Source of the DNA: Myxococcota bacterium
Lineage (GTDB): Bacteria > Myxococcota_A > UBA796
Direction of reading: 5' to 3'
Assembly (NCBI GenBank): GCA_047621685.1
Contig: JBLHNG010000001.1
Span: forward strand, 16,986 to 80,985
Length of the DNA stretch: 64,000 nucleotides
The notes under the pieces were generated by a model that had not been told where the DNA came from, made no database searches, and was given only the letters and a program-made list of their open reading frames with translations. Numbering within the stretch: the first letter of the stretch is position 1; every line of letters starts with the position of its first letter. Both the position numbers and the translations under genes were made by a program. This document shows, piece after piece, positions 6,782 through 35,008 of the stretch.

Positions 6782-6822
6782 GTGGGCGGCCGCGGAGGGG
6801 ACCAGTACCGATCAGATTTAGG

Positions 6823-7632
6823 CTACGCCGTCCAGGTCCCCGCGCGCGGGAGCCGCAGGGAGAGGCAGGTCAGCGCGCCATCAGCCTTGTGGAACTCATC
6901 AACCTGGAGCACCCGCACCCGCAGGCCCCGGCGGTGCAGAGCCTCGGCGGTCCGCGGCGCGGCGGCGGAGACGAGGATGGTGTCTCCCAGCGCCAGCACG
7001 TTGCCACCGTGGGGCTCCTCGGTGGGCAGCAGCTCTACGCCTGCTTCGGCCAGCGACTCAGGTCTGAGCATCGACGGACAGTAGATCAGCAGCTCAGGGG
7101 TGGCGAGGGTCACTGCGCTCTTGAGGTGCAGGCCCGCCCGGAGCGGCACGGAGCGAACGGTGAGCCCCTCCGCAGTCGCCGCGAGCTTCAGCCAGGCCAG
7201 CCCCTCGCTGTTGCTGCGTTGCGTGCGGCCGACGTAGAGGGTCTGACCGATTCGGAGCACATCGCCGCCGTCGAGGGTGGCGGGTGTGGGCATCGCCGAC
7301 AGGGCGCACCAGTCCGCCAGCGCCTCCGACACCCCGGCAGACTCGCCCCGCCGACCGGGGGCCGCTGAGCGGGTCAGCAGCGCCCGCCGCCCGAGGATCA
7401 CCGCCGGATCCTCCACGAAGCAGCAGTCGGGGTGGTCGGGCAGTGCCGGGAGCACGCGCACCGCCACCCCGACCTCCTTGAGTGCAGAGACATAGGCGGC
7501 GTGCTGGAGGCGCGCCCGGTCCACGTCGATGTCCGCCGGATGTTCCTGGATGGAGTCGGTGAAGCGATCTGGAACCGCACGAACGAGGGCCGCGGCGGGT
7601 GCATCAAACGTGAGCGTGCTCGGCAGGTTCAT
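6823..7632 (-). CDS. Dimethylarginine dimethylaminohydrolase / amidinotransferase-family protein
   Basis: ALVRAVPDRF..., CCFVEDPAVI, and C-terminal FHKADGALTCLSLRL (catalytic Cys context) match the DDAH/arginine deiminase-fold family. Confidence 0.75.
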   Translation of the reverse strand: MNLPSTLTFDAPAAALVRAVPDRFTDSIQEHPADIDVDRARLQHAAYVSALKEVGVAVRVLPALPDHPDCCFVEDPAVILGRRALLTRSAAPGRRGESAGVSEALADWCALSAMPTPATLDGGDVLRIGQTLYVGRTQRSNSEGLAWLKLAATAEGLTVRSVPLRAGLHLKSAVTLATPELLIYCPSMLRPESLAEAGVELLPTEEPHGGNVLALGDTILVSAAAPRTAEALHRRGLRVRVLQVDEFHKADGALTCLSLRLPRAGTWTA

Positions 7633-15878: not shown

Positions 15879-16892
15879 CTACTCCAGCAGCTTCGGCCCG
15901 CCCTTCGCGGCGACCGGTCGACGGATCTGAAGGGTGCGCCCGGCGGTCTGGCCGCTGGCGGTTGCCGCATTGGCGCGCAGGGTGCTCCCCCGCCCAGCGC
16001 GACGGCGGGGGTGGCGGGTCTCCAGGTAGTCCTCCAGTCCCGCCGCCTTCACCCACACCAGCCCGGCCTCCTCGTCGTCGCGCTGCTGAGCCTCCAGCTG
16101 CTGGCGGACCCCCATCATCACCCCGGCGAAGAACCGCTGCCGATCGCGACCGTGGGCGCCGGTGCGCTTCCGATGCGCCCGCCAGAGCCGACCGGTGGCC
16201 TCCAGCAGGAAGCCGTGCATCCAGCAGGCGACCTCCAGGTTCTCCGGGCTGCCGCAGATCTCCAGCACCCGCCCCCGCTTCCTGCGGTCCACCGCGTACC
16301 CGCTCACCCAGATCCCACTGACGAAGAAGTGATCGATGAGGATGGCAGCGAGCAGCTTGTCGTACAGCGGGCGGCTGCCGGAGGGGGTGCCGAGCTGACG
16401 AAAGCCGTAGCGGCTGGTGCCGCCGGCCTCGGAGAGGTTGTGCCGCAGCATCAGCCGCCGGGCCGCCCGGGCTGCGACCTCCGCCTCATGCACGTTGTCG
16501 CTGCCGGCCAGGGCGAGCAGCCGCTGCACCTTGCGCATCGCCTTGCTGGCGCTGTCTGGCAGTCCCCCGGCAGCCGGATCGATCTGGAGCCGTCGGCAGA
16601 CCTCCTGGAACACCGGTCCGTGTGCGGTCTCATCGGCCTTGAGCACCTCAGCGACGTACTGGTGGGCCATCTCGTGCTTGAGGATCTCCACCACCACGCC
16701 CCACGGCTGCGTGGTCACCAGGGTGCGAGACAGGCTCAGGGTGCGACCGGTCGTCGTCCAGGTCCCCAGCGTCGTCTGGCCATCCGAGAGCGCGAGGATC
16801 GGCGCCCGGAGGGCCTCGCGGAAGTGCAGTCGGTTGACCCGCCGCCACTCGGAGAGCAGCTCGTGGATCAGAAGGGACTCGGGGGCGGTCAT
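15879..16892 (-). CDS. SprT-like zinc metallopeptidase domain protein with DUF2786-like segment
   Basis: HEMAHQY (HExxH) in a SprT-like context, plus LALAGSDNVHEAEVAARAARRLMLRHNL. ORF-track start 17117 trimmed to ATG 16892 because the extension overlaps the mutT-like gene. Confidence 0.6.
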   Translation of the reverse strand: MTAPESLLIHELLSEWRRVNRLHFREALRAPILALSDGQTTLGTWTTTGRTLSLSRTLVTTQPWGVVVEILKHEMAHQYVAEVLKADETAHGPVFQEVCRRLQIDPAAGGLPDSASKAMRKVQRLLALAGSDNVHEAEVAARAARRLMLRHNLSEAGGTSRYGFRQLGTPSGSRPLYDKLLAAILIDHFFVSGIWVSGYAVDRRKRGRVLEICGSPENLEVACWMHGFLLEATGRLWRAHRKRTGAHGRDRQRFFAGVMMGVRQQLEAQQRDDEEAGLVWVKAAGLEDYLETRHPRRRAGRGSTLRANAATASGQTAGRTLQIRRPVAAKGGPKLLE

Positions 16893-16917
16893 GGTGTCGT
16901 CTCTATATAAAGCGTCA

Positions 16918-17325
16918 ATGAAGATCATCCGAGTCGTCGCAGGCGCGATCATCAAAGACGGCCTGCTCCTGGCCGCGCTGCGGGGGCCGGGCATGTCCCA
17001 GGCGGGGCTGTGGGAGCTGCCCGGTGGGAAGGTGGAGCCTGGAGAGGATGACCGCAGTGCCCTCGCCCGGGAGCTGCACGAAGAGCTGGGCATCACCGTC
17101 GCCGTCGGGGACTTCATCGCCAGCCACGACCACGCCTACCCCGGCAAGACCGTGCGGCTGGTCGCCTACGCCTGCCGCATCATCGACGGAGCGCTCGCGG
17201 TCACCGAGCACGCGGAGATCCGCTGGGTGAGCGCAGGAGCAATCGACGGGCTGACCTGGGCGCCCGCGGACCTCCCGCTGCTCATCGCCACCCGTCCGCT
17301 GCTCACCGCCCCACCGATGGCTTGA
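16918..17325 (+). CDS. NUDIX hydrolase, MutT-like (8-oxo-dGTP diphosphatase-like)
   Basis: NUDIX box GLWELPGGKVEPGEDDRSALARELHEELGI. About 135 aa. Confidence 0.8.
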   Translation: MKIIRVVAGAIIKDGLLLAALRGPGMSQAGLWELPGGKVEPGEDDRSALARELHEELGITVAVGDFIASHDHAYPGKTVRLVAYACRIIDGALAVTEHAEIRWVSAGAIDGLTWAPADLPLLIATRPLLTAPPMA

Positions 17326-17982: not shown

Positions 17983-18498
17983 ATGAACCGAGCCCTGCTG
18001 ATGTTGATGATGGCGGCACCCCTGTCCGCCGGTGCCTACCCAGAGATGATCCCGCTGGAGGAGACCTCCCTGGTCGGCCGTGCGGCCCCGGAGGTTGATC
18101 TCAAGACCCTCGGCGGAGAGGCCTTCGTGCTCTCAGAGGCGAAGAACACGCCGGTCGTTCTGGCGTTCTGGGCGAGCTGGTGTGGCCCCTGCCGCAACGA
18201 GATGCCCGCCCTGATCGAGCTTCAGAAGGCCCGCAGCGATGTGCGCATCGTGATGGTCAACGTCGACCGGGATCGCCGCGACGCCCAGCGCTTCCTCTCC
18301 CAGGTCGGCATCACCCCCGAAGACGCCGAGATCGCCCTGGACAGCGAGGCGCTCGCGCTGGGGGCCTACGGGGTGATGAGCATGCCGACGACGTTCCTGG
18401 TCGACGGCAGCGGCGTCGTGAAGTTCCACAAGGTCGGCTACAGCACTGAGAAGGGCCTCACCGAGCTGATCGAAGCGATCGAGGGGGTGAAGCCATGA
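17983..18498 (+). CDS. Periplasmic TlpA/ResA-like thiol:disulfide oxidoreductase
   Basis: Signal peptide, FWASWCGPCRNEMP (CxxC thioredoxin-fold motif). Confidence 0.85.
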   Translation: MNRALLMLMMAAPLSAGAYPEMIPLEETSLVGRAAPEVDLKTLGGEAFVLSEAKNTPVVLAFWASWCGPCRNEMPALIELQKARSDVRIVMVNVDRDRRDAQRFLSQVGITPEDAEIALDSEALALGAYGVMSMPTTFLVDGSGVVKFHKVGYSTEKGLTELIEAIEGVKP

Positions 18499-20387
18499 AG
18501 AAGGGCGCACTCCTCCTCCTGGTGCTCGTCGGGCTCGCCGGGGCCGCCATCAGCGGGCTGATGACCTGGCACCACGACGTTCAGATGTTCGGAGACGCGG
18601 CGATCCAGGGCGGCCTCATCGGCTGCGAGGCCAGCGAAGAGGTCAACTGCGACATCGTCAACACCAGCGAGTACTCCGAGCTTCTCGGCGTGCCGATCGC
18701 CACCTGGGGCATCGCGACCTACCTGCTGATCGCCATGCTGGCGGCACTGGCTGCGGCCGGGCGTCAGGCCGTGCTCAAGCTGCTGCTGGCCATCGGGGTG
18801 GGCACGACCCTCTACTCCGGCTTCCTGTTCGGCATCTCCAAGCTCCAGCTCAACTACGTCTGTGCCTGGTGCATGCGCCTGTACGGCATCAACCTCTCCA
18901 TCCCGGTGCTCTCCCTGCTCGCCGGTGCCTGGAGTGCGCCGAAGCCGTCGGGGAAGGTCATCGGCTCCGCGCTGGCGGCGTTCGTGCTGCTCTCGGCGGT
19001 CTCAGTCGGCGGAGAGCGGGCGTTTCGGGCGGGTCTGCTCGGTGATGAAGCCAGCACCACCCGGCTCGCAGAGGTCACCCCTCAGGAGGCCACTCCGGTC
19101 GGCCCCCAGCTCGATCCCGAGGGCACCCTCACCGCGCGCACGATGGCGGTGAAGACCGAAGACAAGAACGACGCCATCCTCCACATCCGCGCCGACGACG
19201 CCTGGAAGGGCAACCCGGACGCCGAGGTGATGCTGGTGGAGTTCGCGGACCTGGAGTGCGGCTACTGCAAGCGCACCAGCAGCCAGCTCAAGCGCCTGGT
19301 GGATGCCTACAGCGACGACGTCCTGTTCGTCTTCAAGCACTTCCCGATGGACCCCAGCTGCAACCCCGGGGTGAACAACCGCAAGCACCGAGACGCCTGC
19401 ACCGCAGCGATGGCCAGCGTCTGCGCCCAGCAGCAGGGGCGGTTCTGGTCGTTCCATGACCTCGCGTTCAAGAACCAGCACAAGCTCAAGGCCGACAACC
19501 TCCGGACCTACGCGGAGAGCGTGGGGGCTGACATGGCCACGTTCGACGACTGCATGCGCGACCCGGCCACCAAGCAGGCGGTGGTGGCAGACGCAGAAGA
19601 CGGCGCGGCGGTGGATGCCCACGGCACCCCGCGGATCTTCATCAACGGCCAGCTCTACCGCTCCGGCTCCTCCGCCGAGAAGATGGCCACAGCGATCGAG
19701 CGCGCGCTGGGGGCAGACGCCGCGACAGCCCGGGAGTCCGCCAAGGCCGTCGCGGAGGAGCGGCTCACCACCACCCCCATCCCCGATGACGTCGAAGAGA
19801 TGCAGCGCATCACCCACGGCGACCTCGACTTCCTCATCGACACCTTCGAGTCCGCCCTCTCCGTGCAAGGAAGCACCGCGACCGCACAGCAGGGCCGCCA
19901 CCTCATCCCCGCCACTCAGATGAGCTGGTTCGCCGCCAACGAGGCCTGCTCAGCAGCGGGCAAGCGCATGTGCACCGAGGCGGAGTGGGTGGCCACCTGC
20001 CAGAACACCGCGCCCGTCGACGACGACGGAAACGGCCAGTTCGCCGACGACATGGTCGAGGGCACCAGCTACCCCTACGCCGACTACCACTCCCCCGGGC
20101 GCTGCTGGGATGGCCACGCACGCGGCAGCAAGTGCGGTGAGGAGAAGGACCAGGACTGCCGACCGGTCTACACCGGCGAGATGCCCGGCTGTGTGTCCGC
20201 GGGCGGGGTCTATGACCTGACCGGAAACGTCGAGGAGTGGGTCGGAGACAGCGCAGAGACCGCAGTGCTGCTCGGCGGCGCGTTCGACACCTCCAAGGAC
20301 CACGCCCGCTGCTATCGCAGAAACGACACCTACGGTCCTGGCTTCGCCAATGTCCGGACCGGCTTTCGGTGCTGCAAGAACCCGTGA
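18495..20387 (+). CDS. Triple-domain fusion: VKOR membrane domain + DsbA-like thioredoxin domain + FGE/SUMF1-type domain
   Basis: N-terminal TM helices with Cys pairs (CEASEEVNCD, CAWC). Central VEFADLECGYCKR DsbA motif. C-terminal MSWFAANEAC..GKRMCTEAEW, YDLTGNVEEWV, RTGFRCC FGE-sulfatase signature. Confidence 0.8.
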   Translation: MKKGALLLLVLVGLAGAAISGLMTWHHDVQMFGDAAIQGGLIGCEASEEVNCDIVNTSEYSELLGVPIATWGIATYLLIAMLAALAAAGRQAVLKLLLAIGVGTTLYSGFLFGISKLQLNYVCAWCMRLYGINLSIPVLSLLAGAWSAPKPSGKVIGSALAAFVLLSAVSVGGERAFRAGLLGDEASTTRLAEVTPQEATPVGPQLDPEGTLTARTMAVKTEDKNDAILHIRADDAWKGNPDAEVMLVEFADLECGYCKRTSSQLKRLVDAYSDDVLFVFKHFPMDPSCNPGVNNRKHRDACTAAMASVCAQQQGRFWSFHDLAFKNQHKLKADNLRTYAESVGADMATFDDCMRDPATKQAVVADAEDGAAVDAHGTPRIFINGQLYRSGSSAEKMATAIERALGADAATARESAKAVAEERLTTTPIPDDVEEMQRITHGDLDFLIDTFESALSVQGSTATAQQGRHLIPATQMSWFAANEACSAAGKRMCTEAEWVATCQNTAPVDDDGNGQFADDMVEGTSYPYADYHSPGRCWDGHARGSKCGEEKDQDCRPVYTGEMPGCVSAGGVYDLTGNVEEWVGDSAETAVLLGGAFDTSKDHARCYRRNDTYGPGFANVRTGFRCCKNP

Positions 20388-20503: not shown

Positions 20504-22102
20504 ATGAGGAAACAGCCCGTGGCGATCATCAACACTCCGAAGCACCTCAAATACAGCAAGACAAAGCTCAAGCAGCTCAAGGCCGGCAGCCACACCGAGG
20601 GGCTGGCCTTCTGCATCCTCCGGAGGAAGGGTGCCCAGGACGCCGTGGTCCACTTCGACAAGCCCGCCCGCGTCGGGCAGTACAAGAACCCGGCGGCCAT
20701 CCACAAGGTGCTGAAGAAGACCACTGCGTTCGACCTCGACGATGCCAATCCCTTCTTCAACGACATCTCCAAGCTCGTCTCGCTGACCGGCGTGGTGACC
20801 CACACCGACGGCAAGCTCCACTTCCAGAAGACCCTCGGTCGCGGAAAGGAAGCGGACCTCAAGCTGGGCATGAAGTTCTTGAAGCAGGCGAAGTTTTCCT
20901 TCGGAACCACGGCCCCCGGTCGCGAGGAGGTTGTGGCCGCGACCAGCAGGTCCACCGAACGCATCACCGCCTTGAAGACGCTCTCGCCAGACGACTGGGC
21001 CACCGTCGCCTCCGATCCTGGAGCCCACTTCGGCACCGTCGAGGGCCTCGGTGACATCATCGAGCAGCTCACCGAGAGCGGCGAGGACCCGGTGCTCCTC
21101 CAGAAGCTGAAGGCTGCCTATACATCGATTGACGACTGGTCCGAAGACGGCATCGAGCCGGTCGACGACGCCATGGCGCTCCTCAGCGGGATCACCGACT
21201 TCCGCGAAGAGGAGACGGACATCCAGGATGCCTGGCAGATGGGGACCGCGGACATGCGGATCGAGCTGTCGAAGCTCCGAACGAAGGCTGCAGAGATGCT
21301 CACTCAGAAGAGCTTCGGCGGCCAATTCAAGAGCCTGTTCAGTCAGGCGCGGACGATGAGCACCATGCGGATGGGCCACTATCAGTTCGTCCATAAGACC
21401 ATTGAAGCGGTCGGCGGTGGCCCGCTGCTGATGGTGAGCGCCTCCTCTACCTTCCAGCACCAGATACTGTTCGACGATGTGAAAGCCGTCCCAATCGCCG
21501 CGGGCCGGTTTCGTCGAAGCAAGAGCGGCAAGAAGATCGCATTCCAGGTCAACAACGGCAGCACCACCGAGCACCTGCTCCAGAGCGCCCTCAAGAAGTC
21601 AGGGCTCGCCAGCAGCACAGCGTTTATCGTCGACGACTTCGACGACTTCCAGGCGACGATGAAGGCAAAGCGCCAGGTCAACGACCTCAAGTCTCCTGCC
21701 GCGATCGCGACGCTGACGCTCTCGTTCACCCTCGAAAAGCCGCTCCTCCGAGACCTCTTTGCCGAGCACTGTGCTGATGAGTACAGCGCGGAGAACATCG
21801 CGTACTACCTGCAGGAAGAAGGGCTCCCCATCCCGAGCTGCATTCCCGCCGACCTGGTGATTATAGACGCGGTGGTTCGCCACCAGGCCTTCATCTCCAA
21901 GGGCCTGAGCACCTCGCTCAACCTGCCCCACACCGTGTACGAGACTGCGGTGGAGCAGGACCCTGTCACGGCCTATTCCACCGTAAAAATAGAAGTCATC
22001 ACGCTGTTCAGGGACACCTTCGCTCGCTTCGTCAAGGGCAAGCATCTGAGCAACGCCGTCGGCACCTCCGCCGAGATCCGCACCCTGATCGGCATCCGCT
22101 GA
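20504..22102 (+). CDS. Cytoplasmic protein with C-terminal RGS (regulator of G-protein signalling)-like domain
   Basis: Residues encoded around 21721..22050: LFAEHCADEYSAENIAYYL ... HQAFIS....SLNLP ... ITLFRDTFARFVKGKHL. These parallel the RGS hallmarks (F..FL.SE[FY]SEEN..FW, ..FI....EVNL, ..M..DS[FY].RFL.S). The N-terminal ~400 aa are unassigned. Confidence 0.65.
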   Translation: MRKQPVAIINTPKHLKYSKTKLKQLKAGSHTEGLAFCILRRKGAQDAVVHFDKPARVGQYKNPAAIHKVLKKTTAFDLDDANPFFNDISKLVSLTGVVTHTDGKLHFQKTLGRGKEADLKLGMKFLKQAKFSFGTTAPGREEVVAATSRSTERITALKTLSPDDWATVASDPGAHFGTVEGLGDIIEQLTESGEDPVLLQKLKAAYTSIDDWSEDGIEPVDDAMALLSGITDFREEETDIQDAWQMGTADMRIELSKLRTKAAEMLTQKSFGGQFKSLFSQARTMSTMRMGHYQFVHKTIEAVGGGPLLMVSASSTFQHQILFDDVKAVPIAAGRFRRSKSGKKIAFQVNNGSTTEHLLQSALKKSGLASSTAFIVDDFDDFQATMKAKRQVNDLKSPAAIATLTLSFTLEKPLLRDLFAEHCADEYSAENIAYYLQEEGLPIPSCIPADLVIIDAVVRHQAFISKGLSTSLNLPHTVYETAVEQDPVTAYSTVKIEVITLFRDTFARFVKGKHLSNAVGTSAEIRTLIGIR

Positions 22103-22133: not shown

Positions 22134-22532
22134 ATGACCAGCAAGTCCGATCGCCACCTCATCGTCCTTCTCTCCCTCGTCGTCGCTGCTGACGCTGGTC
22201 CCGAGGGGCCGTCCATTCGCAAGCGCCGGGCGATGCAGCTCGTCCTCCGGAGCCGGTTTCCCGACCGGGGCTACGCCGATGTCCAGAAGCTCATCGCGAA
22301 GGCCAACACCGGCATGCCCGCGATCACAAGCGGCCTCGACATCATGAAGATCACCGAGCGTCAGGCAGAGAAGCTCGCCGCCACCCTGCCTGCCGAGGAG
22401 CGCGAGGAGGCGCTGCTCACCATCCTCGATGTCGCTGCTGCCGTCCCGGTGATCAGCGCCCAGTCCGAGCGCATCCTCCGCGTCATCGCCCGGACGCTGG
22501 ACCTCTCCGAGCGCCTTCCCGCCGCAGCCTGA
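22134..22532 (+). CDS. Hypothetical protein (weak TerB-like resemblance)
   Basis: 132-aa ORF with coding-like composition. The pattern VVAADAG...ERILRVIARTLDLS is loosely TerB/DjlA-N-like. Confidence 0.4.
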   Translation: MTSKSDRHLIVLLSLVVAADAGPEGPSIRKRRAMQLVLRSRFPDRGYADVQKLIAKANTGMPAITSGLDIMKITERQAEKLAATLPAEEREEALLTILDVAAAVPVISAQSERILRVIARTLDLSERLPAAA

Positions 22533-22685: not shown

Positions 22686-25600
22686 ATGACGCTGCTCCTC
22701 ACCCTCTCAGCCCCCTCCCTCGCCGCGACCCTCATCGTCGACCCGTCCACCTCCGGTGCATATGCCACCATCCAGGACGGCATCGACGCGGCAAGCTCCG
22801 GCGACACCGTCACGGTGGCGAGCGGGACGTACTACGAGTGCATCGACACCGAAGGGAAGGACCTCACCGTCAGCGGCTCCAGCGCGACCATCGACGGCGC
22901 GGGGTACTGCACCACTGGTGTCATCACCGTGGACGGGGGCGAGACCGTCACCTTCTCCGGCTTCACGATCCGCAACACCTACTACCGCGGCGCCTACGTC
23001 TACTACAGCGACGTCACCTTCGATGATGTCTCCTTCAACGGCAACGGGCACACCTCGTACACCACCTACGGCGGCGGGCTCTACGCCGAGGGCGCCACGG
23101 TGACGATCACCGACTCAGAGTTCACCGACAACGACGCCTACTACGGCGGTGCGATCTACCTCACCCTGGGGGCCGACCTGACCATCTCCGACACGGAGAT
23201 CTCGGACAACTACGGCTACTACGGTGCGGGAATCTACGCGAACACCTCCACCACCGTCTCGCTGGACGCCGTCACCCTCGACACCAACTTCGCCTACTAC
23301 TACGGCGGCGCGGTCTACCTGAACTCCTACGCTGACCTCGAGAGCACCGACTCCACCTGGACCTCAAACGGGGGCTACTACACCCACGGTGCCGGCGTCT
23401 ACGGCTACGCTCAGAATGAGATCACCCTGTCAGGCGACACCTTCGATGACAACGCCGCCACCTACTACACCTCCGGCTACCACGGCGGCGCGGTCTACCT
23501 GGGCACCTACGCGAACCTGACCGCCTCAGACACCACGTTCTCCAACAACGCTGGCTACAACGGTGGTGCGATCTACTCGACCTCGTACAACGACATCGAC
23601 CTCACCGACGTCGACTTCGACGCCAACTACGCCCGCTACTACGGCGGCGCGATCTATGCGTACTACTACAGCGACATCTCGCACAACGGTGGTGAGTACA
23701 CCAGCAACTCGTCGTACTACTCCGGCGGTGCGATCTACTCGACCTACTACGGTGACGTCGATCTCGACAACCTCGACTTCACCTCGACGACCTCGCTGTA
23801 TGGCTACGGCGGCGCGGTCTACCAGTACTACTACGGCTCCCAGAGCATCGCGGACACTACGTTCACCGACTCGACGGCCTACTACGGCGGCGGCGCGCTG
23901 TACCTCCACCAGCTCTACACCTCCGTCACCATCGCCCGCACCGACTTCGACGGCAGCACCGCAACCTACCAGCATGGCGGCGCGATCCACGCCGACTACT
24001 ACGTCGGCCTCGGCATCACCAACAGCACCTTCACCGACAGCCACAGCTACAGCAACGGCGGTGCGATCTACCAGTACCGCTACGGTGCGCTGTCCATCGA
24101 CGCTTCGACCTTTGATGGCAACGACACCACCTACGGCCACGGCGGCGCGATCTACGCCTACCCGGCGACGACGGGGGCCTACGACCTGCTGGTGACCGAC
24201 TCGGAGTTCACCGACAACGAGACGTACTACAACGGCGGTGCGATCTACGCCTACTACATCGATGACCTCGAGATCTCCGGCTCCACCTTCGAGTCCAACG
24301 TCGCCAACAGCTCCAACAGCTCCTACTCGGGCGGCGCGCTGTACCTGTACTACAACGACGACGTCACCGTCGCCTCGAACATGTTCTGCAACAACGAGGC
24401 GTACAATGGCGGTGGCGTCTACAGCTACTACGCCTACGGCGGCACCGATGAGTGGACCAACAACATCTTCCAGGAGAACGTCGCCACCTACGCTGGCGGC
24501 GCGCTCTACTTCTACTCCAACCACTACAACGAGTTCATCAACAACACGCTGGTCGGAAACGATGCCAACACCTACGGCGGCTCAGTCTACTTCCTCGGGA
24601 CCTACTCGTCGTTCTTCAACAACATCATCGCCTACAGCCTCGATGGTGGCGGAGTCTACGCCGCGGGCACCGCCAGCGACACCAACTCTGACTTCTACTA
24701 CAACGACTGGTACAGCAACCTCGGTGGCGACACCGCGGGCTCGTTTTCCTTCTCGACCTCCGGCAACGGCAACATCACCGATGACCCGGACTTCGGCAGC
24801 TACAACCTCGACGGAGACTGCGAAAACGACGACCTGACCCTCGACTCCGGCTCGGCCCTCATCGACGCTGGACACACCGCCTACCAGGACCCCGACGGGA
24901 CCACCTCAGACATCGGTGCCTACGGCGGCCCGGACAGTCCGCTCGTGGACGACGACGGGGATGGCTACTACCAGGGCGATGACTGCGACGACGACGACGC
25001 CAGCACCTACCCGGGCGCGACGGACACCTGGTACGATGGCGTGGACTCGGACTGCGACGGCGCCAGCGACTACGACCAGGACGGAGATGGCGAGGACTCC
25101 GATGCCTACGGCGGCGTAGACTGCGACGACACTGCCGCCAGCATCAACACTTCCGCCTCGGACACCTGGTACGATGGCGTGGACTCGGACTGCGATGGTG
25201 CCAGCGACTACGATCAGGATGCCGACGGCTATGATCACGACAGCTACGGCGGAAGCGACTGCGATGATGTCGACGACAGCGTCAATCCCGGCGAGAGTGA
25301 GACCTGGTACGATGGCATCGACACCGACTGCAGCGGCACCAGTGACTACGACGCCGATGGAGACGGCGAGGACTCCGACGCCTACAGCGGCACCGACTGC
25401 GACGATGCGGACGCCAGCATCAACACCACCACCTCAGAGACCTGGTACGATGGCATCGACTCGGACTGCGATGGCGCCAGCGACTACGATGCAGATGGCG
25501 ACGGCTACGACTCCGACAGTTACAGCGGAACCGACTGCGATGACTCCACCGCGAGCACCAACCCCGGGGCCTCAGAGACCTGGTACGATGGCGTCGATGC

Positions 25601-26774
25601 GGACTGCGCAGGCGACTCTGACTACGATGCAGACGGCGACGGAGAGGACTCCAGCAGCTACAGCGGAGACGACTGCGACGACACGGATGCGACCGTCAAC
25701 ACCACGGCCACTGAGACCTGGTACGATGGCGTCGATGCGGACTGCGCGGGCGACTCCGACTACGACGCGGACATCGACGGCTACGATTCCGACAGCTACG
25801 GCGGAACCGACTGCGATGATGCGGACCTCGCCATCAACCCGGGTGCCTCCGAGACCTGGTACGATGGCATCGACACCGACTGCGACGCCCTGAGCGACTA
25901 CGACCAGGACGGCGACGGCGAAGACTCCGATGCCTACAGCGGTCCGGACTGCAATGACACCGACGCTACCGTCAATACCACATCTGCAGAGATCTGGTAC
26001 GACGGCGTTGATCAAGACTGCAACGGTGCGAGTGACTACGACGCCGACCTCGACGGCTACAACCTGGACACCTACGGCGGCACTGACTGCGACGACACCG
26101 ACGATGCGGTCAACCCCGCTGAGAGCGAGGTCTGGTACGACGGGGTCGATCAGGACTGCGACGGTGCCAGCGACTACGACGCCGACGGCGACGGCTACGA
26201 TCAGGAAGGCCTCGGCGGAGACGACTGCCAGGATGCGGACCCTGACATCTACCCGGGCGCGAAGGATGACCCCTACGACGGCATCGATCAGGACTGCTCT
26301 GGTGACTCGGACTACGACAACGACGGCGATGGCTACGACTCGGTGGACTACGGCGGTCCGGACTGCGACGACGACGACGAGGACATCCACCCCTCCGCCA
26401 CCGAGATCTGGTACGACGGCGTGGATGGCGACTGCGATGGTGCCAGCGACTACGACGCCGACGCTGATGGCTATGAGGCCGCGGACTTTGGCGGCGAAGA
26501 CTGCGACGATGAGGATGGTGCCATCAGCCCGGCCGCTGAGGAGGTCGCTGACGACGGCATCGACCAGGACTGCGACGGCGAAGACCTCGTCACCGAGGAC
26601 ACCACGCCCATCGATGGCGGAGAGGACACCGGCGAGGGCGACGGCGGAGAGTACACCGGTGGGAACACCGATGAGGATGGCGACAAGGCATGCAGCCACG
26701 TGCGGTCGGGGACGGCTGGGCTCTGGGGCCTCATGGTCCTCTTCGTTGGCCTCGTCCGCCGTCGGCGGGAGTGA
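22686..26774 (+). CDS. Giant secreted surface protein: right-handed beta-helix / PMP-type (GGAIY) repeats + 11 tandem 46-aa Cys/Asp repeats + Cys-containing C-terminal sorting tail
   Basis: Signal-like MTLLLTLSAPSLAATL. More than 20 YYGGA[IV]Y-type repeats. Repeats of WYDG[VI]D.DC.G.SDYD.D.DG... Tail ACSHVRSGTAGLWGLMVLFVGLVRRRRE. Confidence 0.85.
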   Translation: MTLLLTLSAPSLAATLIVDPSTSGAYATIQDGIDAASSGDTVTVASGTYYECIDTEGKDLTVSGSSATIDGAGYCTTGVITVDGGETVTFSGFTIRNTYYRGAYVYYSDVTFDDVSFNGNGHTSYTTYGGGLYAEGATVTITDSEFTDNDAYYGGAIYLTLGADLTISDTEISDNYGYYGAGIYANTSTTVSLDAVTLDTNFAYYYGGAVYLNSYADLESTDSTWTSNGGYYTHGAGVYGYAQNEITLSGDTFDDNAATYYTSGYHGGAVYLGTYANLTASDTTFSNNAGYNGGAIYSTSYNDIDLTDVDFDANYARYYGGAIYAYYYSDISHNGGEYTSNSSYYSGGAIYSTYYGDVDLDNLDFTSTTSLYGYGGAVYQYYYGSQSIADTTFTDSTAYYGGGALYLHQLYTSVTIARTDFDGSTATYQHGGAIHADYYVGLGITNSTFTDSHSYSNGGAIYQYRYGALSIDASTFDGNDTTYGHGGAIYAYPATTGAYDLLVTDSEFTDNETYYNGGAIYAYYIDDLEISGSTFESNVANSSNSSYSGGALYLYYNDDVTVASNMFCNNEAYNGGGVYSYYAYGGTDEWTNNIFQENVATYAGGALYFYSNHYNEFINNTLVGNDANTYGGSVYFLGTYSSFFNNIIAYSLDGGGVYAAGTASDTNSDFYYNDWYSNLGGDTAGSFSFSTSGNGNITDDPDFGSYNLDGDCENDDLTLDSGSALIDAGHTAYQDPDGTTSDIGAYGGPDSPLVDDDGDGYYQGDDCDDDDASTYPGATDTWYDGVDSDCDGASDYDQDGDGEDSDAYGGVDCDDTAASINTSASDTWYDGVDSDCDGASDYDQDADGYDHDSYGGSDCDDVDDSVNPGESETWYDGIDTDCSGTSDYDADGDGEDSDAYSGTDCDDADASINTTTSETWYDGIDSDCDGASDYDADGDGYDSDSYSGTDCDDSTASTNPGASETWYDGVDADCAGDSDYDADGDGEDSSSYSGDDCDDTDATVNTTATETWYDGVDADCAGDSDYDADIDGYDSDSYGGTDCDDADLAINPGASETWYDGIDTDCDALSDYDQDGDGEDSDAYSGPDCNDTDATVNTTSAEIWYDGVDQDCNGASDYDADLDGYNLDTYGGTDCDDTDDAVNPAESEVWYDGVDQDCDGASDYDADGDGYDQEGLGGDDCQDADPDIYPGAKDDPYDGIDQDCSGDSDYDNDGDGYDSVDYGGPDCDDDDEDIHPSATEIWYDGVDGDCDGASDYDADADGYEAADFGGEDCDDEDGAISPAAEEVADDGIDQDCDGEDLVTEDTTPIDGGEDTGEGDGGEYTGGNTDEDGDKACSHVRSGTAGLWGLMVLFVGLVRRRRE
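25023..26540. repeat. Tandem array of 11 x 138 bp (46-aa units) inside the giant gene
   Basis: Unit starts checked at 25023, 25161 and 26403 (exact 138-bp phase). Units alternate between a ...DGDGEDSDAY.G.DC.DTDA.VNTT... type and a ...D.DGYDSDSYGG.DCDD.D..[IV]NPG.SE... type. Confidence 0.9.
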
Positions 26775-26822: not shown

Positions 26823-26890
26823 AGAAAACTCTCCCCTCTCCGACTGGCTGGTTGCTCGATTACAGTGGGAGTACCGATTCGGAGGCTACC

Positions 26891-29800
26891 GTGCTCGCCC
26901 TGCTCCTTGCTATGCCGTCCCTGGCAGCGACCCTCACAGTCTCCGCTTCGGGGACCTACACCACCATCCAGTCCGCGGTCACGGCCGCCTCGGATGGGGA
27001 CACCATCTCGATCTCGGCAGGGACCTACATCGAGTGTGTGGATCTCGGCGGACTCGATCTCATCCTGATCGGCGCCTCTACCTCTTCGACCACCGTCGAC
27101 GGTGGCGGGTGTTCTGCGGGTGCATTTTCCATGACCGGGGGCGAGACCGCGGAGATCAGCGACCTCACCATCACCAACAGTGGCTACTCTGCGGTGGTGG
27201 TCGAGAGCAGCTTCCTGACCCTGGACAATGTGGTGATCGAGTCCTCTGGCTCGGTGAGCTTTGGCCGGGACGGCGGCGCGATCTTTGCCGACAGCAGCTA
27301 CATCGAGATCACCGACTCCGTCTTCGACAGCAACGGCGGCTACTACGGCGGCGCGATCGCGCTGGAGTCTGCCTCCGCCCTGGTCGTCGATGATGTGACC
27401 TTCACTGACAACCTGGGCCAGTTCGGTGCGGGCATCTCGCTGAAGGATGCCTCATCCGCCGACATCACCAACACCACCTTCGAGGGCGGACTGGTGAGCG
27501 TGACGGGCTACGGCAAGGGCGGCGCGATCTACAGCTACTACGACGTCGAAGTGACCATCGACAGCTCGACGTTCACCGACAACGATGCCGCGACCTTCGG
27601 CGGTGCCATCTCCATGGAGAGCGGCGGCAGCCTGGTCATCACGAGCTCGATCTTCGACAGCAACGAGATCCTCACCTCGCTGGCTGCCCCCAGCAGCGGC
27701 GGCGCGATCTACACCTACGACCTCGATGAGATGTCCATCTCAGACTCAGAATTCACGGATAACGTCGGTTATTTCTATGGCGGTGCGGTCTTCGCCAACA
27801 ACATGAACGATGAGACCGAGATCAGCGACTCGATCTTCTCTGGCAACGAGATTCAGAGCAAGCGCGGTGGCGCGGTCGAGTTCTCCGCGGGCTCAGATCT
27901 GGTGATCACCCGCTGCACCTTTGAGGACAACATCTCCGCAGAGGGCGGCGCGGCGCTGAGTGTGTACCAAAACGTCACACTGGAAATTACGGAATCCACC
28001 TTCTCCAGAAACACCAACTCCTCCACCCGGGATGCCTACGGCGGCGCGATCTTCGTCTATGACGACGACAACGGCGAAGACCTGACCATCACCGACAGCA
28101 CCTTTGACGACAACGAGGCTGCCCTCTCCGGTGGCGCACTCTACGTCTATGGAATGGACACGGTCGATATCAGCGGGACCGCCTTCCGCAACAACGCAGC
28201 GAGCGGGGTCGGCAGCTCGTCGGTGTACTACGGCGGCGCAGCCAACTTCTACGATGTCTCCGAGGTGAACATCACCAACGCCGATGTCTGTGGAAACGAG
28301 GCAGACTACGCCGGTGGCTTCTATATGGAGCTGATCGACGCGGTCTCGATGAAGAACTCCACGATGGTGGAGAACACCGCCGCGTTTGAGGGCGGCAGCG
28401 GCTACATCCTGGACGTCACGGATGTGGTGATTGAGAACAACACCTTCATCGCAGCGACCGGCGGCGGGCTGTACTTCGGCCAGACCGCGGTGACCTTCAC
28501 CAACAACGTCGTCGCCTACACCACCGACACCTACGGGGTGTACGCCGAGGACTCCGACACCGACACCGACTCCGACTTCACCTACAACGACTGGTACGAC
28601 AACGGAACCGACGACACCGACGGCTACTTCAGCTTCTCGACCACCAGCGACGGCAACATCACCGATGAGCCGGAGTTCAACGACTACTCCGAAGACGGTG
28701 ACTGCACCAACGACGACCTCACCCCCGCCATCGGCTCCCCCCTGATCGACGCCGGCGACCCCGCCATCACCGATCCCGACGACTCCGACAGCGACATCGG
28801 CGCCTATGGTGGTCAGGGCAGCACTGCAGTGGATGAAGACGGCGACGGCTACTACATCAACACCGACTGCGACGACACCGACAGCGACATCAACCCAGGG
28901 GCGACCGAGATCTGTGATGGGGTGGACAACGACTGCGACGGCACCGTCGACATCGGCAGCGACGACGGCGACACCTACTACGCCGACGACGACGGCGACG
29001 GCTTCGGCGACGCCGACGACAGCAGCTTCCTCTGCGAAGAGACCAGCGGCTACGTCACTGACGACACCGACTGTGACGATGGTGACAGCGACATCAACCC
29101 CGACGCCGAAGAAGTCTGTGACAATGAAGACAACGACTGTGACGGCGACATCGACGGCGAAGATGCTACCGATGTGACCACCTGGTACCTCGACTACGAC
29201 TCCGATGGCTATGGCGGGAGTGCCTACACCGAGACCGCCTGCGATCAGCCCTCCGGATACGTCGCTGACAGCACCGACTGCGACGACGGCGACTCCAGCA
29301 TCAGCCCGGGTGCTGATGAGTACTGCGACGGCGACGACAACGACTGCGACGGCGACACCGACGAGGACTCCGCTCTCGATGCCACCACCTGGTACATCGA
29401 CTTCGACAGCGACGGCTACGGGGTCGCAACGTTCACTGAGATCTCCTGCGATGAGCCTTCCGGCTTCGTCGACAACATCGACGACTGCGACGACACCGAC
29501 AGCAGCGTGAGCCCGGATGCTGACGAGGTCTGCGATGGCATCGACAACAACTGTGACGGCACCACAGACACCGATGCCATCGATCTCGCGACCTGGTACG
29601 CCGACGCCGACGGCGACACCTACGGCGACCCTTCAGACAGCGAGATGACCTGCGAGCCCTCGTCCGGCTACGTCGACAACGATGACGACTGCGACGACGA
29701 CTCCGCTGAGGCCCTGCCCGGCGGCACCGAGATCTGTGACGGACTCGACAACGACTGTGACGGCAGCACCGACGACGGAAGCGCAGACATCTCAATGTTC

Positions 29801-30451
29801 TACGCGGACTTTGACGGAGACGGCTACGGCGACCCGGATAGCCTCACCGAGGCATGTGAGGCCCCGGGCGGCCACGTCGAGAACGGCGAAGACTGCGACG
29901 ACGGCGTCAGCTACTCCTACCCTGGCGCCGATGAGGTCTGCGACGACCTCGACAACGACTGCGATGGCGAGATCGACGAAGACGCCATCGACATGCTCAC
30001 GTACTACGCCGACAGCGACGACGACGGCTACGGCGACGCCAGCAGCGTGATGATGTCCTGCGACCCGCTCTCCGGCTTCGTGCTCGACAGCAGCGACTGC
30101 AACGACGACGCAGATTCCGCCTACCCCGGCGGCACCGAGATCCCCTACGACGGCATCGACAACGACTGCGACGGCAGCGATCTCACCGACGTCGATGGCG
30201 ACGGGTATGAGTCGGATGTGATCGGTGGAGAAGACTGCGACGATGACGATGATGTCATCAACCCCGAGGGCGACGACATCGCCGGAGACGGTGTGGACCA
30301 GGACTGTGACGGGTCTGATACACCGCTTGACGGCTCGGAAACGGACGACGACAAGGGCTCTTGTAGCTATGTCGGCGGTGGAGATGCCGGGCTCTGGGGG
30401 CTGCTGGCGGTCGCCGGTCTCCTCCGGCGTCGGCGCCGCACAGAGGCGTGA
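26891..30451 (+). CDS. Giant secreted surface protein, paralogue of 22686..26774: beta-helix/PMP repeats + MopE-type putative metal-binding Cys/Asp repeats + C-terminal sorting tail
   Basis: GTG 26891 preceded by GGAGG gives VLALLLAMPSLAATLTV, parallel to the paralogue N-terminus (the ORF track starts at TTG 26852). GGAI[YF] repeats. About 7 repeats of DCDD.D..[IV].P.A.E.CDG.DNDCDG..D. Tail GSCSYVGGGDAGLWGLLAVAGLLRRRRR. Confidence 0.85.
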   Translation: MLALLLAMPSLAATLTVSASGTYTTIQSAVTAASDGDTISISAGTYIECVDLGGLDLILIGASTSSTTVDGGGCSAGAFSMTGGETAEISDLTITNSGYSAVVVESSFLTLDNVVIESSGSVSFGRDGGAIFADSSYIEITDSVFDSNGGYYGGAIALESASALVVDDVTFTDNLGQFGAGISLKDASSADITNTTFEGGLVSVTGYGKGGAIYSYYDVEVTIDSSTFTDNDAATFGGAISMESGGSLVITSSIFDSNEILTSLAAPSSGGAIYTYDLDEMSISDSEFTDNVGYFYGGAVFANNMNDETEISDSIFSGNEIQSKRGGAVEFSAGSDLVITRCTFEDNISAEGGAALSVYQNVTLEITESTFSRNTNSSTRDAYGGAIFVYDDDNGEDLTITDSTFDDNEAALSGGALYVYGMDTVDISGTAFRNNAASGVGSSSVYYGGAANFYDVSEVNITNADVCGNEADYAGGFYMELIDAVSMKNSTMVENTAAFEGGSGYILDVTDVVIENNTFIAATGGGLYFGQTAVTFTNNVVAYTTDTYGVYAEDSDTDTDSDFTYNDWYDNGTDDTDGYFSFSTTSDGNITDEPEFNDYSEDGDCTNDDLTPAIGSPLIDAGDPAITDPDDSDSDIGAYGGQGSTAVDEDGDGYYINTDCDDTDSDINPGATEICDGVDNDCDGTVDIGSDDGDTYYADDDGDGFGDADDSSFLCEETSGYVTDDTDCDDGDSDINPDAEEVCDNEDNDCDGDIDGEDATDVTTWYLDYDSDGYGGSAYTETACDQPSGYVADSTDCDDGDSSISPGADEYCDGDDNDCDGDTDEDSALDATTWYIDFDSDGYGVATFTEISCDEPSGFVDNIDDCDDTDSSVSPDADEVCDGIDNNCDGTTDTDAIDLATWYADADGDTYGDPSDSEMTCEPSSGYVDNDDDCDDDSAEALPGGTEICDGLDNDCDGSTDDGSADISMFYADFDGDGYGDPDSLTEACEAPGGHVENGEDCDDGVSYSYPGADEVCDDLDNDCDGEIDEDAIDMLTYYADSDDDGYGDASSVMMSCDPLSGFVLDSSDCNDDADSAYPGGTEIPYDGIDNDCDGSDLTDVDGDGYESDVIGGEDCDDDDDVINPEGDDIAGDGVDQDCDGSDTPLDGSETDDDKGSCSYVGGGDAGLWGLLAVAGLLRRRRRTEA

Positions 30452-30902: not shown

Positions 30903-32096
30903 TTAGCCAGCAATGTTCCACGTGGAACACACCACATGCAGCGCATGCAGTCCCGCCAGAAGACGCCGACCAGCAGCAGTGGGCTGGCCCTTCTCAGCAA
31001 CAGTAGCCAGCCCACGGGCGTTGCTCTCCAGCACCGCATCCCGCCGACGACGAAAGTGCGGAGTCTGACTGATCGGATGCCCAAGCGCCTCCAGGCGGGC
31101 ATGCATCGCCGCGACCGGAACGAAGGCATGAGCAGCCAGAAGCACGCCGGACAGCGGACGGAGGTCTGGCCGAACCGGAGAAGCGGTCCACTCGCTTCGA
31201 CCGTTCTTGAGCACCGGATCCAGCCACATCAGCGTGTTCAGCCGACTGTGCTGGGTCTCATGCACGATCGCTTCGGCCAGGGTCAGCGGATCGGGGTGTA
31301 GCGTCATCCAGGCCACCCCCGGGGCCTCCAGGTAGGACGCTGACAGGTGCATCTCCGCCTCAAAGCCCACCGGCACCAGCCGCTCCAGGCTCAGCGGAAG
31401 CTCTCGCCACCACTCCGGCAGGGCCACCGCAATCAGCGCCAGCGCCTCAGACAGCGCAGCCACCCACTCCGTCGCAGCCTTCCCGCCCAGGCTCACCGCG
31501 TTGCCAGCTTTGTCGGGGTGGTCTTCGAGCATCGAGAGCGGGTTGGTGTCCCGGGTGCTGAGGTGCAGTCGGGGGAGGTCGGGGTGCAGCGGGTGGTAGG
31601 GGCGGCGGGCGTCTTGGGGCGGGACGGAGAGCCGGGTGCCGTCGGCCAGGGCCAGCGACAGCCCGCTCGGATCGGCGACCACCACTGAGAGCGGTGCATC
31701 GATGGCGAAGCCCAGCCGCGGTGCGGACAGCCCCGGAGCGGGGTGGTCCCAGAGGATCGCCTCGGTGAGCGCACGGGCGGGCAGGGCAGCGAGGAGGTCT
31801 GGGCCGACAGCGGCGAGCTGGGCGATCGCATCGACCTGGGGGTGCGCCAGCGACAGCAGGCGCGGCAGCACATCGGGGGCACCGATGGCGGAGAGGGTGG
31901 CAGCCGGGTGGCGTCGGGCGGTGTCGGTGAGCACCGGACGCAGTCGAATCAGCGCACTTCGCAGTGTCGGCGGAAGGCCATCGAGGGGCCAGGTCAGCAG
32001 CCGACGCAGGGCCAGGAGGCGAACCTTACGCACGAGCCGGGGCCAGGAGCTGTCCGATGCCGGGAGCGTGAGAAAGGCGGAGGGGAGGTCGAGCAT
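30903..32096 (-). CDS. HExxH-motif protein, aKG-HExxH-type peptide beta-hydroxylase-like (TIGR04267-like)
   Basis: LAEAIVHETQHSRLNTLMWLDP motif in a ~400-aa soluble protein, transcribed divergently from a radical SAM operon. That context is typical of this family as I recall it. Confidence 0.7.
   Translation of the reverse strand: MLDLPSAFLTLPASDSSWPRLVRKVRLLALRRLLTWPLDGLPPTLRSALIRLRPVLTDTARRHPAATLSAIGAPDVLPRLLSLAHPQVDAIAQLAAVGPDLLAALPARALTEAILWDHPAPGLSAPRLGFAIDAPLSVVVADPSGLSLALADGTRLSVPPQDARRPYHPLHPDLPRLHLSTRDTNPLSMLEDHPDKAGNAVSLGGKAATEWVAALSEALALIAVALPEWWRELPLSLERLVPVGFEAEMHLSASYLEAPGVAWMTLHPDPLTLAEAIVHETQHSRLNTLMWLDPVLKNGRSEWTASPVRPDLRPLSGVLLAAHAFVPVAAMHARLEALGHPISQTPHFRRRRDAVLESNARGLATVAEKGQPTAAGRRLLAGLHALHVVCSTWNIAG
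30910..30931. promoter_or_regulatory. Copy A of 22-bp motif GCAATGTTCCACGTGGAACACA (perfect 16-bp palindrome TGTTCCACGTGGAACA at 30914..30929)
   Basis: Identical 22-mer also at 50253..50274. Read directly. Confidence 0.4.
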
Positions 32097-32150
32097 GGCG
32101 GCTTTATATCAGCCGACCCCGACAGCCCGAGGCAAGGCGTTGTGATACCG

Positions 32151-33482
32151 ATGGGTATGGATCACGCCGAGGAGAACCACCGCACCAAGGGGCTGACCCG
32201 GCTGACCATGGCCTGCAATGAGCGGTGTCCGTTCTGCAACGTGCCGATGGAGGACTACCCTCGCCTCACGCCGCCGGAGTCCGAGGTCCTCGCCGAGCTT
32301 CAGAGCTTCTTCGACAGCGGCGCGCAGACCCTGACCATCTCCGGTGGCGAGCCCACCCTGCTGAGGCGCCGGCTGCTGTCGCTGGTCGACAAGGCGCGGC
32401 AGGGCGGCATCCGCTCCATTGAGCTGCAGACCAACGCTGTGCTGATCGATGGGGCCTACGCGACAGATCTCGCTGAGGCTGGGCTGACCAGTGCGTTCGT
32501 CTCGCTGCTCTCTGAGAGCGCTGAGCTGCACGACCACCTCGCTGGCCTCCCCGGCGCCTTCCCCCGGTGCCTCGCGGGCATCGACGCGCTGATCGCGGCG
32601 GGGGTGTCCGTGACGCTCAACCCGGTCATCGCCTCTGCGACCCAGGCGCGGGTCGTGGACTACATGCGCTTCGTCGTGCAGCGCCTGCCGGCAGTGCGCT
32701 CGATCTCCCTGTCCGCAGTGCAGCCCCATGGCCGGGCCGCCGACAACCTCGATCTCCTGCCCGACTACGGCGTGCTCGCTCAGCAGCTTCCGGAGGCCCG
32801 ACAGGTCGCTCAGGCTGCTGGGGTCACCGTGCTCAACCCCTACTGCGGGCTGCCGCTGTGCGTGGGCTGGAGCGGTGACCTGGGGCAGTGTGTGGAGGCC
32901 GCAGAGGCCCGTGACGGCGGCTGGCGGGCGCGTCCAGGCATCGACAACCAGGGCAACAAGTCCCACGGCGCGGTGTGTGGTCCCTGCGTGCTGCGTCCCT
33001 GGTGTGGTGGCGCCTGGCATGCCTACTGGCAGCATCGGGATGGCGCGGGCATCGCACCCCCGGCCGAGCGGATCCCGCCGTGGCGTGCTGGAGCCTCGAC
33101 GGCCCCCTGGCAGTCGGTGGTCTCCGCGCCCGGTGGCTTGACCGATGCCGCTCGGACCGCACTTCAGTCCGCCGAGACCCCGACGATCTGGCTGTGGACG
33201 GATCGGCTGACCCGGGCAGATGTCGTGCCGCTGCTGACCTCCCGCTGCACTGCGGTGGGGCTGGAGGTGGTGGCTGACGGGCTGGCCTCCGGTGCTCGCC
33301 CCGACTGGCTCCGTCCGCTGCGGGCGCTGCTCCGTGGTGGCTGTGCGGCCCACCTCGCGGTGCGTCGGCCGCTGCTGGCAGGGGATCGTCAAGCGCTGGC
33401 AGCGCTGGCGGACCGGCTCGGGGTGACCGGAGTCGATGTGCTTCCCGAGAGACAGCATGCTTCCAGCACGGCAGGGGCCTGA
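32151..33482 (+). CDS. Radical SAM protein with partial SPASM/twitch-like C-terminal Cys motif (rSAM1)
   Basis: LTMACNERCPFCNV (CxxxCxxC), ISGGEPTLL, ELQTNAVLI, CGPCVLRPWCGG. Start taken at ATG 32151 (GTG 32142 is also possible). Confidence 0.85.
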   Translation: MGMDHAEENHRTKGLTRLTMACNERCPFCNVPMEDYPRLTPPESEVLAELQSFFDSGAQTLTISGGEPTLLRRRLLSLVDKARQGGIRSIELQTNAVLIDGAYATDLAEAGLTSAFVSLLSESAELHDHLAGLPGAFPRCLAGIDALIAAGVSVTLNPVIASATQARVVDYMRFVVQRLPAVRSISLSAVQPHGRAADNLDLLPDYGVLAQQLPEARQVAQAAGVTVLNPYCGLPLCVGWSGDLGQCVEAAEARDGGWRARPGIDNQGNKSHGAVCGPCVLRPWCGGAWHAYWQHRDGAGIAPPAERIPPWRAGASTAPWQSVVSAPGGLTDAARTALQSAETPTIWLWTDRLTRADVVPLLTSRCTAVGLEVVADGLASGARPDWLRPLRALLRGGCAAHLAVRRPLLAGDRQALAALADRLGVTGVDVLPERQHASSTAGA

Positions 33483-33483
33483 C

Positions 33484-34947: not shown

Positions 34948-35008
34948 TGCTGCCACTCACCCTGGAGACAGAGGGCAAGTGGCCCCCACCTGCGATAGGA
35001 TCCGCTCA

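Follow-up and report, generated by a model that had tools for sequence, protein, structure and literature searches.

Can a bacterium of the phylum Myxococcota encode a genuine RGS domain and, if so, on what could such a domain act? RGS domains are counted among the eukaryote-specific components of heterotrimeric G-protein signalling. The question is raised by a gene in a 64-kb stretch of a Myxococcota contig (JBLHNG010000001.1), the whole of which is referred to here as the window, and in which a sequence-only reading had proposed a C-terminal RGS domain. The NCBI record describes the product as 'MAG: hypothetical protein ACI8RZ_000031 [Myxococcota bacterium]', MAG standing for metagenome-assembled genome, and carries no precomputed Pfam domain. 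The protein is most likely a cytoplasmic three-module bacterial signalling protein with the RGS domain at its C-terminal end. The features on which this rests are:

20519..22102, plus strand: RGS-protein gene, 527 residues from a GTG start at 20519 (NCBI call, family N-termini, upstream AGGA)

21716..22078, plus strand: RGS domain, residues ~405-525; Pfam match at residues 410-511 (21731..22036)

S428, E430 and N431 within 21779..21796, N473 at 21920..21922, D504 and R508 within 22010..22030, plus strand: residues equivalent to G-alpha contacts, mapped from RGS4

The open reading frame at 20504..22102 (plus strand) is present as listed, with 532 residues from an ATG at 20504, and this 532-residue numbering is used for the RGS protein throughout. 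The NCBI record starts at GTG 20519 (527 residues). This GTG is probably the true start, because the resulting N-terminus (M-A-I-I-N-T-P-K-H-L) fits the pattern M-x-I-x-N-T-x-x-H-L of all relatives and an AGGA is located at 20507-20510, 8 nt 5' of it.

Taken by itself, the window protein matches the Pfam RGS model (PF00615) with 15.4 bits (E=0.024) over model positions 6-110 of 117, which is below the Pfam gathering score of 23.9 bits. The PF00615 search that the earlier reading had in mind is positive for three homologues, P0002 (37.9 bits), P0003 (30.2 bits) and P0007 (29.4 bits), and falls short for the window protein alone; P0004 (22.4 bits) and P0005 (17.0 bits) also stay under the cut-off. 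RGS is the sole or top Pfam match in six of the seven representatives of the RGS-bearing branch, and the seventh gives no Pfam RGS match, whether as the partial P0017 or the full-length P0021. Among PDB sequences the window protein finds RGS14 best (E=0.0067), followed by RGS17 and RGS7, with E-values ranging from 0.007 to about 1. A profile of the family C-terminus (alignment A3) has 37 matches among PDB sequences, all of them RGS or RGS-homology proteins (RGS16 8.8e-12, RGS4 3e-9, axin 0.03). GRK and RhoGEF rgRGS sequences are missing from this list. The profile fits the classical R4, R7, RZ and R12 types of RGS far better than the RGS-homology domains. Alignment of the family profile to the RGS4 box by hhalign reaches a probability of 97% (E=1.1e-10), the identity of the bacterial domain to RGS proteins being only about 15-23%. 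The three motif blocks recognized in the sequence-only reading, at residues 426-435 (EYSAENIAYY), 470-475 (TSLNLP) and 503-512 (RDTFARFVKG), are aligned by both HMMER and hhalign to the RGS blocks with which they had been equated.

The predicted structure agrees. An AlphaFold2 model built from a seven-sequence alignment is all helical at residues 400-529, with nine helices assigned by DSSP and a predicted local distance difference test score (pLDDT) of 75-89. When this model was compared to the PDB with Foldseek, the top 15 matches were all RGS domains, with a probability of 1.00 and target-normalised template modelling (TM) scores of 0.59-0.74, the best structures being RGS4 in complex with Gi-alpha-1, RGS1, RGS7 and RGS8. 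The domain is hence predicted to adopt the RGS helical-bundle fold, the RGS4-type bundle anticipated by the earlier reading. What is found is thus not an absence of significant PF00615 matches coupled to an unrelated fold, and the C-terminal RGS domain stands, supported by the family profiles as well as by the predicted fold. The assignment is upheld in spite of the sub-threshold score because of the homologue scores, the family profile and this fold. On the strength of these alignments, the C-terminal ~120 residues are a genuine but divergent homologue of the eukaryotic RGS box.

The residues through which such a domain would engage a G protein are in place in the window protein. S428, E430, N431, N473, D504 and R508 align with Ser85, Glu87, Asn88, Asn128, Asp163 and Arg167 of RGS4, which we take to be the G-alpha contacts touching the switch regions in the RGS4/Gi-alpha-1 structure; the list is said to go back to Tesmer et al. 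in 1997. All six equivalents are retained in the window protein and in P0002. Over the seven RGS-bearing sequences, N473 is conserved in all, E430 in six, N431 and R508 in five each and D504 in three, and N473, the Asn128 equivalent, is the sole invariant polar residue of the RGS domain in the family. It is this Asn that RGS4 directs into the G-alpha active site, acting by stabilising the intrinsic catalytic residues of the G protein (PMC3199381). As the contact residues are retained and the profile is closest to the RGS classes with GTPase-activating protein (GAP) activity, the sequences favour a GTPase-directed function, at least for the window paralogue and P0002.

The family that carries the domain is extremely rare. 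An exhaustive phmmer search of 1.84 billion cluster representatives yielded only 18 family representatives, and the match extends into the middle or C-terminal region in seven sequences, the window protein included. In word-indexed searches, neither the protein nor the full-length or RGS-domain alignment retrieved anything beyond the protein itself; the family was recovered solely by exhaustive phmmer. Scans of genome collections gave no matches for the RGS branch and, for the N-terminal module, one contig among 185,579 species-representative genomes, and a metagenome scan gave one locus. The locus-tag prefix ACI8RZ is found also on P0019 (same length as P0003 and in the same 90% cluster) and on P0017, and therefore at least three RGS paralogues are encoded in one MAG. 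The homologue P0002 is already tagged with PF00615 by automated annotation, and the searchable literature yielded no account of RGS proteins in bacteria. A role in anti-phage defence was considered and rejected, as PADLOC gave no match except a non-significant one to Csm2 for P0021.

Upstream of the RGS domain, the protein is composed of three further parts:

20525..20908, plus strand: N-terminal alpha/beta module, residues ~8-135 (one helix, two strands, two helices, two strands, one helix, one strand)

20936..21364, plus strand: helical linker, residues ~145-287, modelled with low confidence (pLDDT 32-65)

21365..21688, plus strand: middle alpha/beta module, residues ~288-395 (two strands, one helix, two strands, one helix, one strand), pLDDT 64-85

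The statement of the sequence-only reading that the N-terminal ~400 residues resemble nothing familiar holds, as no Pfam, NCBIfam, PADLOC or PDB-sequence hits were obtained for them. The N-terminal module occurs in each of the 17 relatives whose sequence includes an N-terminus (alignment A5) and defines a wider bacterial family; its invariant residues in this alignment are H14, H50, P63, G96 and G112. Its AlphaFold2 model is of good quality (pLDDT 88.3, predicted TM score 0.81), and a Foldseek comparison with the PDB gave no convincing match (top ADF-H/cofilin, probability 0.28, TM 0.30), nor did the module profile find anything significant among PDB sequences. In the linker, a motif W212-x3-G-x3-V-x6-L at 21137..21184 has W212, G216, V220 and L227 invariant. 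The linker is shared with the non-RGS relatives to about residue 260, the phmmer stretches of P0008-P0016 ending at query residues ~186-273.

The middle module is confined to the RGS-bearing branch and finds no match among PDB sequences. Weak PHPT1-like Foldseek matches (probability 0.92, TM 0.41-0.44) probably belong to this module in the predicted structure, because they appear with the whole model and are absent with the N-terminal model alone. A repeat relationship between the N-terminal and middle modules was considered and rejected (hhalign 0.5%; only a 15-residue match by BLASTP). An invariant basic hairpin, GRFRRSKSGKKIAF, occupies residues 334-347 (21503..21544) of the middle module, where G334, F336, S339, S341, K343 and K344 are invariant in alignments A1 and A6. 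Judging from its residues, the hairpin might be a phosphorylation site or a membrane- or ligand-binding patch. It includes an RRxS-type motif, and some relatives adjoin Hanks-type kinases.

The non-RGS relatives end in an unrelated helical C-terminal tail, and a cryptic RGS bundle in these tails was rejected (hhalign 0.03%). The identity of the N-terminal module to that of the window protein is 41-50% in RGS-bearing members and 24-33% in the others. This higher identity among the RGS-bearing members suggests that a single fusion added the middle module and the RGS domain to a pre-existing bacterial protein.

A second gene accompanies the family:

22134..22532, plus strand: gene for a TerB-like small protein of 132 residues, 31 nt downstream of the RGS gene, with its own AGGAG ribosome-binding site

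The only Pfam match of this protein is TerB (PF05099), at 19.5 bits over model positions 3-111 of 118, the Pfam gathering score being 24.4 bits. Its orthologue in L001, beside P0005, reaches 32.7 bits and thus exceeds the cut-off (the two are 32% identical, BLASTP E=5e-15), and the other partner genes score 18-22 bits. According to a family hidden Markov model, precomputed Pfam annotation and alignment A4, a TerB-like gene adjoins each family member whose contig extends far enough: in the window and at L001/L011/L012, L002, L003, L004/L005, L006, L008, L010, L013 and L014/L015. It lies upstream in L003 and on the opposite strand in L004/L005, and is cut at the contig end in L006. BLASTP among all neighbours revealed no third conserved gene, and the conserved unit is therefore the protein with the N-terminal module together with the TerB-like protein. 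The partner gene matches TerB only, and no known adaptor or chaperone family, and it co-varies with the N-terminal module. Scans for promoter and terminator consensus sequences around the gene pair gave nothing.

The surroundings of the relatives differ between the two branches. In four independent loci (L004/5, L010, L013 and L014/15) the gene pair of non-RGS members is followed by a gene for an extracytoplasmic function (ECF) sigma factor (PF07638), and in three of them (L004/5, L010 and L014/15) the order is the protein with the N-terminal domain, TerB, ECF sigma factor and Pkinase; in L013 the contig breaks off within the next reading frame, which is unannotated. These sigma factors are ECF43-like and have a Thr at the canonical DxxD position in the sigma-2.2 segment. 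An adjacent Hanks kinase gene is described as the hallmark of the phosphorylation-controlled ECF43 group (PMC13147305). L010 is the only link of the family to a contractile injection system: at 128..6894, a tight same-strand run encodes a CIS_spike_tip protein (PF19267, 109 bits), a 434-residue protein, P0013 (without RGS), the TerB-like protein, a 553-residue protein, the ECF sigma factor and a Ser/Thr kinase. The RGS-bearing loci have unrelated neighbours, namely ScpA/ScpB/RluB in L001/L011, TauD in L002 and a metallophosphoesterase in L003.

The composition of the gene gives no sign of recent transfer. The earlier reading had remarked by eye that the gene is less GC-rich than its neighbours, which is borne out: the window as a whole has 65.9% GC and the gene 61.5%, which places it at the 4th percentile of 1.6-kb windows. 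The hint of foreign DNA that might be taken from this is not, as codon usage is native: GC at third codon positions (GC3) is 0.857 against 0.84-0.90 in the neighbours, and the distance in relative synonymous codon usage (RSCU) ranks 14th of 33 genes. Recent horizontal transfer was rejected on these two measures. The deficit is located in codon positions 1 and 2 of a gene whose protein is rich in Lys, Phe, Ile and Thr (Lys makes up 8.1% of it, compared to 1.8% in the other 49 genes of the window), and the low GC is consequently ascribed to the Lys-rich amino-acid composition rather than to recent transfer.

How may these components work together? Our tentative preference, held with a little less than even confidence, is for a TerB-coupled intracellular regulator in which the RGS domain is a GAP for a GTPase that has its own catalytic Arg and Gln. 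In such a regulator the N-terminal module and the TerB-like partner would constitute the input or regulatory unit, possibly responding to metal or envelope stress, a role that has been proposed for TerB domains. As the output, the RGS domain would dock on the switch regions of the GTP-bound GTPase and stabilise its catalytic Arg and Gln, with the effect of faster GTP hydrolysis as on G-alpha. The substrate would most likely be an endogenous bacterial GTPase encoded elsewhere in the genome. A precedent is MglA, which has G-alpha-like intrinsic Arg and Gln and whose GAP works in an RGS-like manner (PMC3199381), and by this analogy we infer that the bacterial RGS protein may act on an MglA-like GTPase. 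The full scheme, a Myxococcota GTPase switch under RGS control in which a signal sensed through TerB leads to GTP hydrolysis on an MglA- or Arf-like GTPase, is as a whole quite improbable. Support for the endogenous reading comes from the signalling operons in which relatives are found, from native codon usage and paralogy, from neighbourhoods of housekeeping genes and from a folded N-terminus. The latter is conserved and folded from residue ~8, and is for this reason not a disordered secretion signal.

Several observations weigh against this intracellular regulator. To our knowledge, the only established RGS substrates are eukaryotic G-alpha subunits, and we know of no bacterial one. Neither tblastn with Gi-alpha-1, H-Ras and Arf1 nor a six-frame scan for G1-G3-G4 motifs detected a GTPase in the window or the related loci. 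The sigma factor and kinase context is derived from non-RGS relatives, no such genes being found beside the RGS-bearing members, and one of these relatives (L010) is in an operon with a gene for a contractile-injection spike tip. The TerB copy in the window is itself under the cut-off (19.5 against 24.4 bits), and the TerB-like profile is non-significant against the PDB, the top match being the tellurite-resistance protein 2ou3 at E=1.2. Also, the interface varies among the paralogues. The equivalent of Asp163 is retained in only three of seven, E-Y-S-x-E-N is replaced by G-S-G-A-E-S in P0005, and E-N by N-E in P0017, so that GAP activity, as far as these substitutions tell, may not be general across the paralogues.

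Other explanations read the same evidence differently. That the similarity is due to chance and the Pfam match to noise could be argued from the sub-threshold score (15.4 bits, E=0.024) and the low identity, and is hardly credible; it is effectively excluded by the scores of the homologues, the 37 PDB matches confined to RGS or RGS-homology proteins, the hhalign probability and the Foldseek result. A non-GAP role, in which the domain would be an RGS-homology scaffold comparable to those of axin, GRKs and sorting nexins, with a peptide or the kinase and sigma factor machinery as possible ligand, has more in its favour and is still unlikely. The variable interface, with the altered E-N of P0005 and P0017 and the Asp163 equivalent in three of seven, would suit such a role, as would the lack of a GTPase gene in the window and related loci and, as a matter of general knowledge, the lack of canonical G-alpha in bacteria. 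Against it, the profile is far closer to the GAP-active RGS types (RGS16 8.8e-12 against 0.03 for axin), all six contact residues are retained in the window protein, and the one invariant polar residue is the equivalent of the Asn that enters the G-alpha active site (PMC3199381).

Somewhat unlikely, and the main rival, is that the protein is an anti-eukaryote effector, injected by a contractile injection or type VI-like system to silence G-alpha in prey, predator or host, for instance in the chemotaxis or phagocytosis of protists; the N-terminal module would then be a loading domain and the TerB-like protein a chaperone or adaptor. It is general knowledge that G-alpha, the sole established RGS substrate, is eukaryote-specific, and the full set of G-alpha contacts is retained in the window protein and in P0002. 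A conserved N-terminus combined with variable C-termini and a small adjacent gene resembles polymorphic effector cassettes, and several paralogues occur in one genome. The L010 member is just downstream of the spike-tip gene (PF19267, 109 bits) in one tight operon, and pairs of ECF43 factors and Hanks kinases, comparable to those encoded next to the relatives, control an anti-amoeba type VI secretion system in Xanthomonas citri (PMC13147305). However, the spike-tip link concerns one of about ten loci, and a member without RGS, and there are no injection or secretion genes near any RGS-bearing member. Within the window, a search for secretion or injection machinery and for VgrG, PAAR, sheath and tube genes found none, so that no structural gene of an injection system is linked, and in the protein no known trafficking domain was detected by Pfam, NCBIfam or PADLOC. 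Neither a signal peptide nor a disordered N-terminal signal is present, and the partner, which co-varies with the N-terminal module, matches TerB rather than any adaptor or chaperone family.

The rest of the window, the annotation of which covered almost all of its likely genes (roughly 50), is ordinary chromosome, with genes for PNPase, dUTPase, NUDIX, redoxin, a VKOR-DsbA-FGE fusion and radical-SAM clusters, as well as PP2C, M16 peptidases, FIST and a K+ channel. Some of these deserve mention in their own right. Just 5' of the RGS gene, at 18495..20387 (plus strand), an unusual 630-residue fusion of VKOR, DsbA/thioredoxin and FGE-sulfatase is encoded, the start of which overlaps the stop of the redoxin gene at 17983..18498. 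Directly 3' of the gene pair, 22686..26774 and 26852..30451 (plus strand) encode giant proteins of 1362 and 1199 residues with beta-helix/PMP repeats and with MopE-type 'Cu-binding' repeats, of which there are 12 or 7. A motif with a Cys, the hydrophobic stretch GLWGL and a final RRRR close both proteins; this arrangement resembles a MYXO-CTERM sorting signal and would suit the Myxococcota label. Four consecutive radical-SAM genes are found at 31743..37872 (plus strand) and a run of three more at 60681..63649 (minus strand); these may be peptide- or cofactor-maturation clusters. A 411-residue protein with SprT-like, DUF2786 and DUF7168 domains is encoded at 15879..17117 (minus strand). The region is rich in signalling genes, with a PP2C phosphatase at 37855..38556 and, at 5580..6781 and 47778..48992 (plus strand), two neighbouring proteins with cyclic-nucleotide-binding domains and a FIST sensor.

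The bacterial family retains the RGS fold and contact residues, fused to bacterial modules found elsewhere in the company of sigma-factor and kinase signalling. Myxococcota have repeatedly been discussed in connection with eukaryogenesis. Should the substrate be endogenous, this would be a case of RGS-type control of a bacterial GTPase and would bear on the origin of G-protein regulation. Should the more elaborate GTPase switch be true, prokaryotes would have a counterpart to, and possibly a relative of, the regulatory logic of heterotrimeric G proteins, currently regarded as a eukaryotic invention. A eukaryotic G-alpha as substrate would instead imply a new class of effectors, acting directly to switch off the G-protein signalling of protists or hosts. 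In both cases, a two-gene module not described before is defined, made up of a novel N-terminal domain and a TerB-like protein.

Compared to known systems, the protein resembles the eukaryotic R4, R7, RZ and R12 RGS proteins in its homologous box, its predicted fold, the three motif blocks and the contact equivalents of the window protein. It differs from them in its bacterial host (a Myxococcota MAG, from which no G-alpha is known), its native codons, an identity of about 20%, its TerB-like partner and its flanking modules, which match no Pfam family or solved structure. These modules are unrelated to the DEP, GGL, PDZ, RBD, GoLoco, PX and seven-transmembrane (7TM) parts of eukaryotic RGS proteins. 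With MglB, the GAP of the myxobacterial Ras-like MglA, it shares the phylum and the proposed mode of action, a stabilising of the GTPase's own Arg and Gln, and the action of MglB was explicitly likened by its authors to that of RGS4 on Gi-alpha-1 (PMC3199381). MglB is, however, a Roadblock/LC7 protein, none of whose residues are near the active site (PMC3199381), and it has no sequence or structural relation to RGS. The partner is comparable to TerB proteins (PF05099) and to the stress or conflict modules associated with them, TerB being its only Pfam match, nearly over the full model and above the cut-off in the L001 orthologue. In contrast to TerB systems, the window copy is under the cut-off and no other ter genes are nearby, and no pairing of TerB with this N-terminal module, and thereby with RGS, is described in the literature searched. 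The pairs of ECF43 factors and Hanks kinases (EcfK/PknS, EcfP/PknT) are like the non-RGS relatives in that these are followed by a PF07638 sigma factor, with its sigma-2.2 Thr, and a Pkinase; the window and the other RGS-bearing loci, unlike them, lack an adjacent sigma factor or kinase, and are associated with such pairs by family membership only. What was already known is thus the RGS domain itself, and what is new is the architecture with two unassigned modules and an obligate TerB-like partner, the bacterial host with native codons, the paralogous expansion and the link to ECF sigma factors and kinases.

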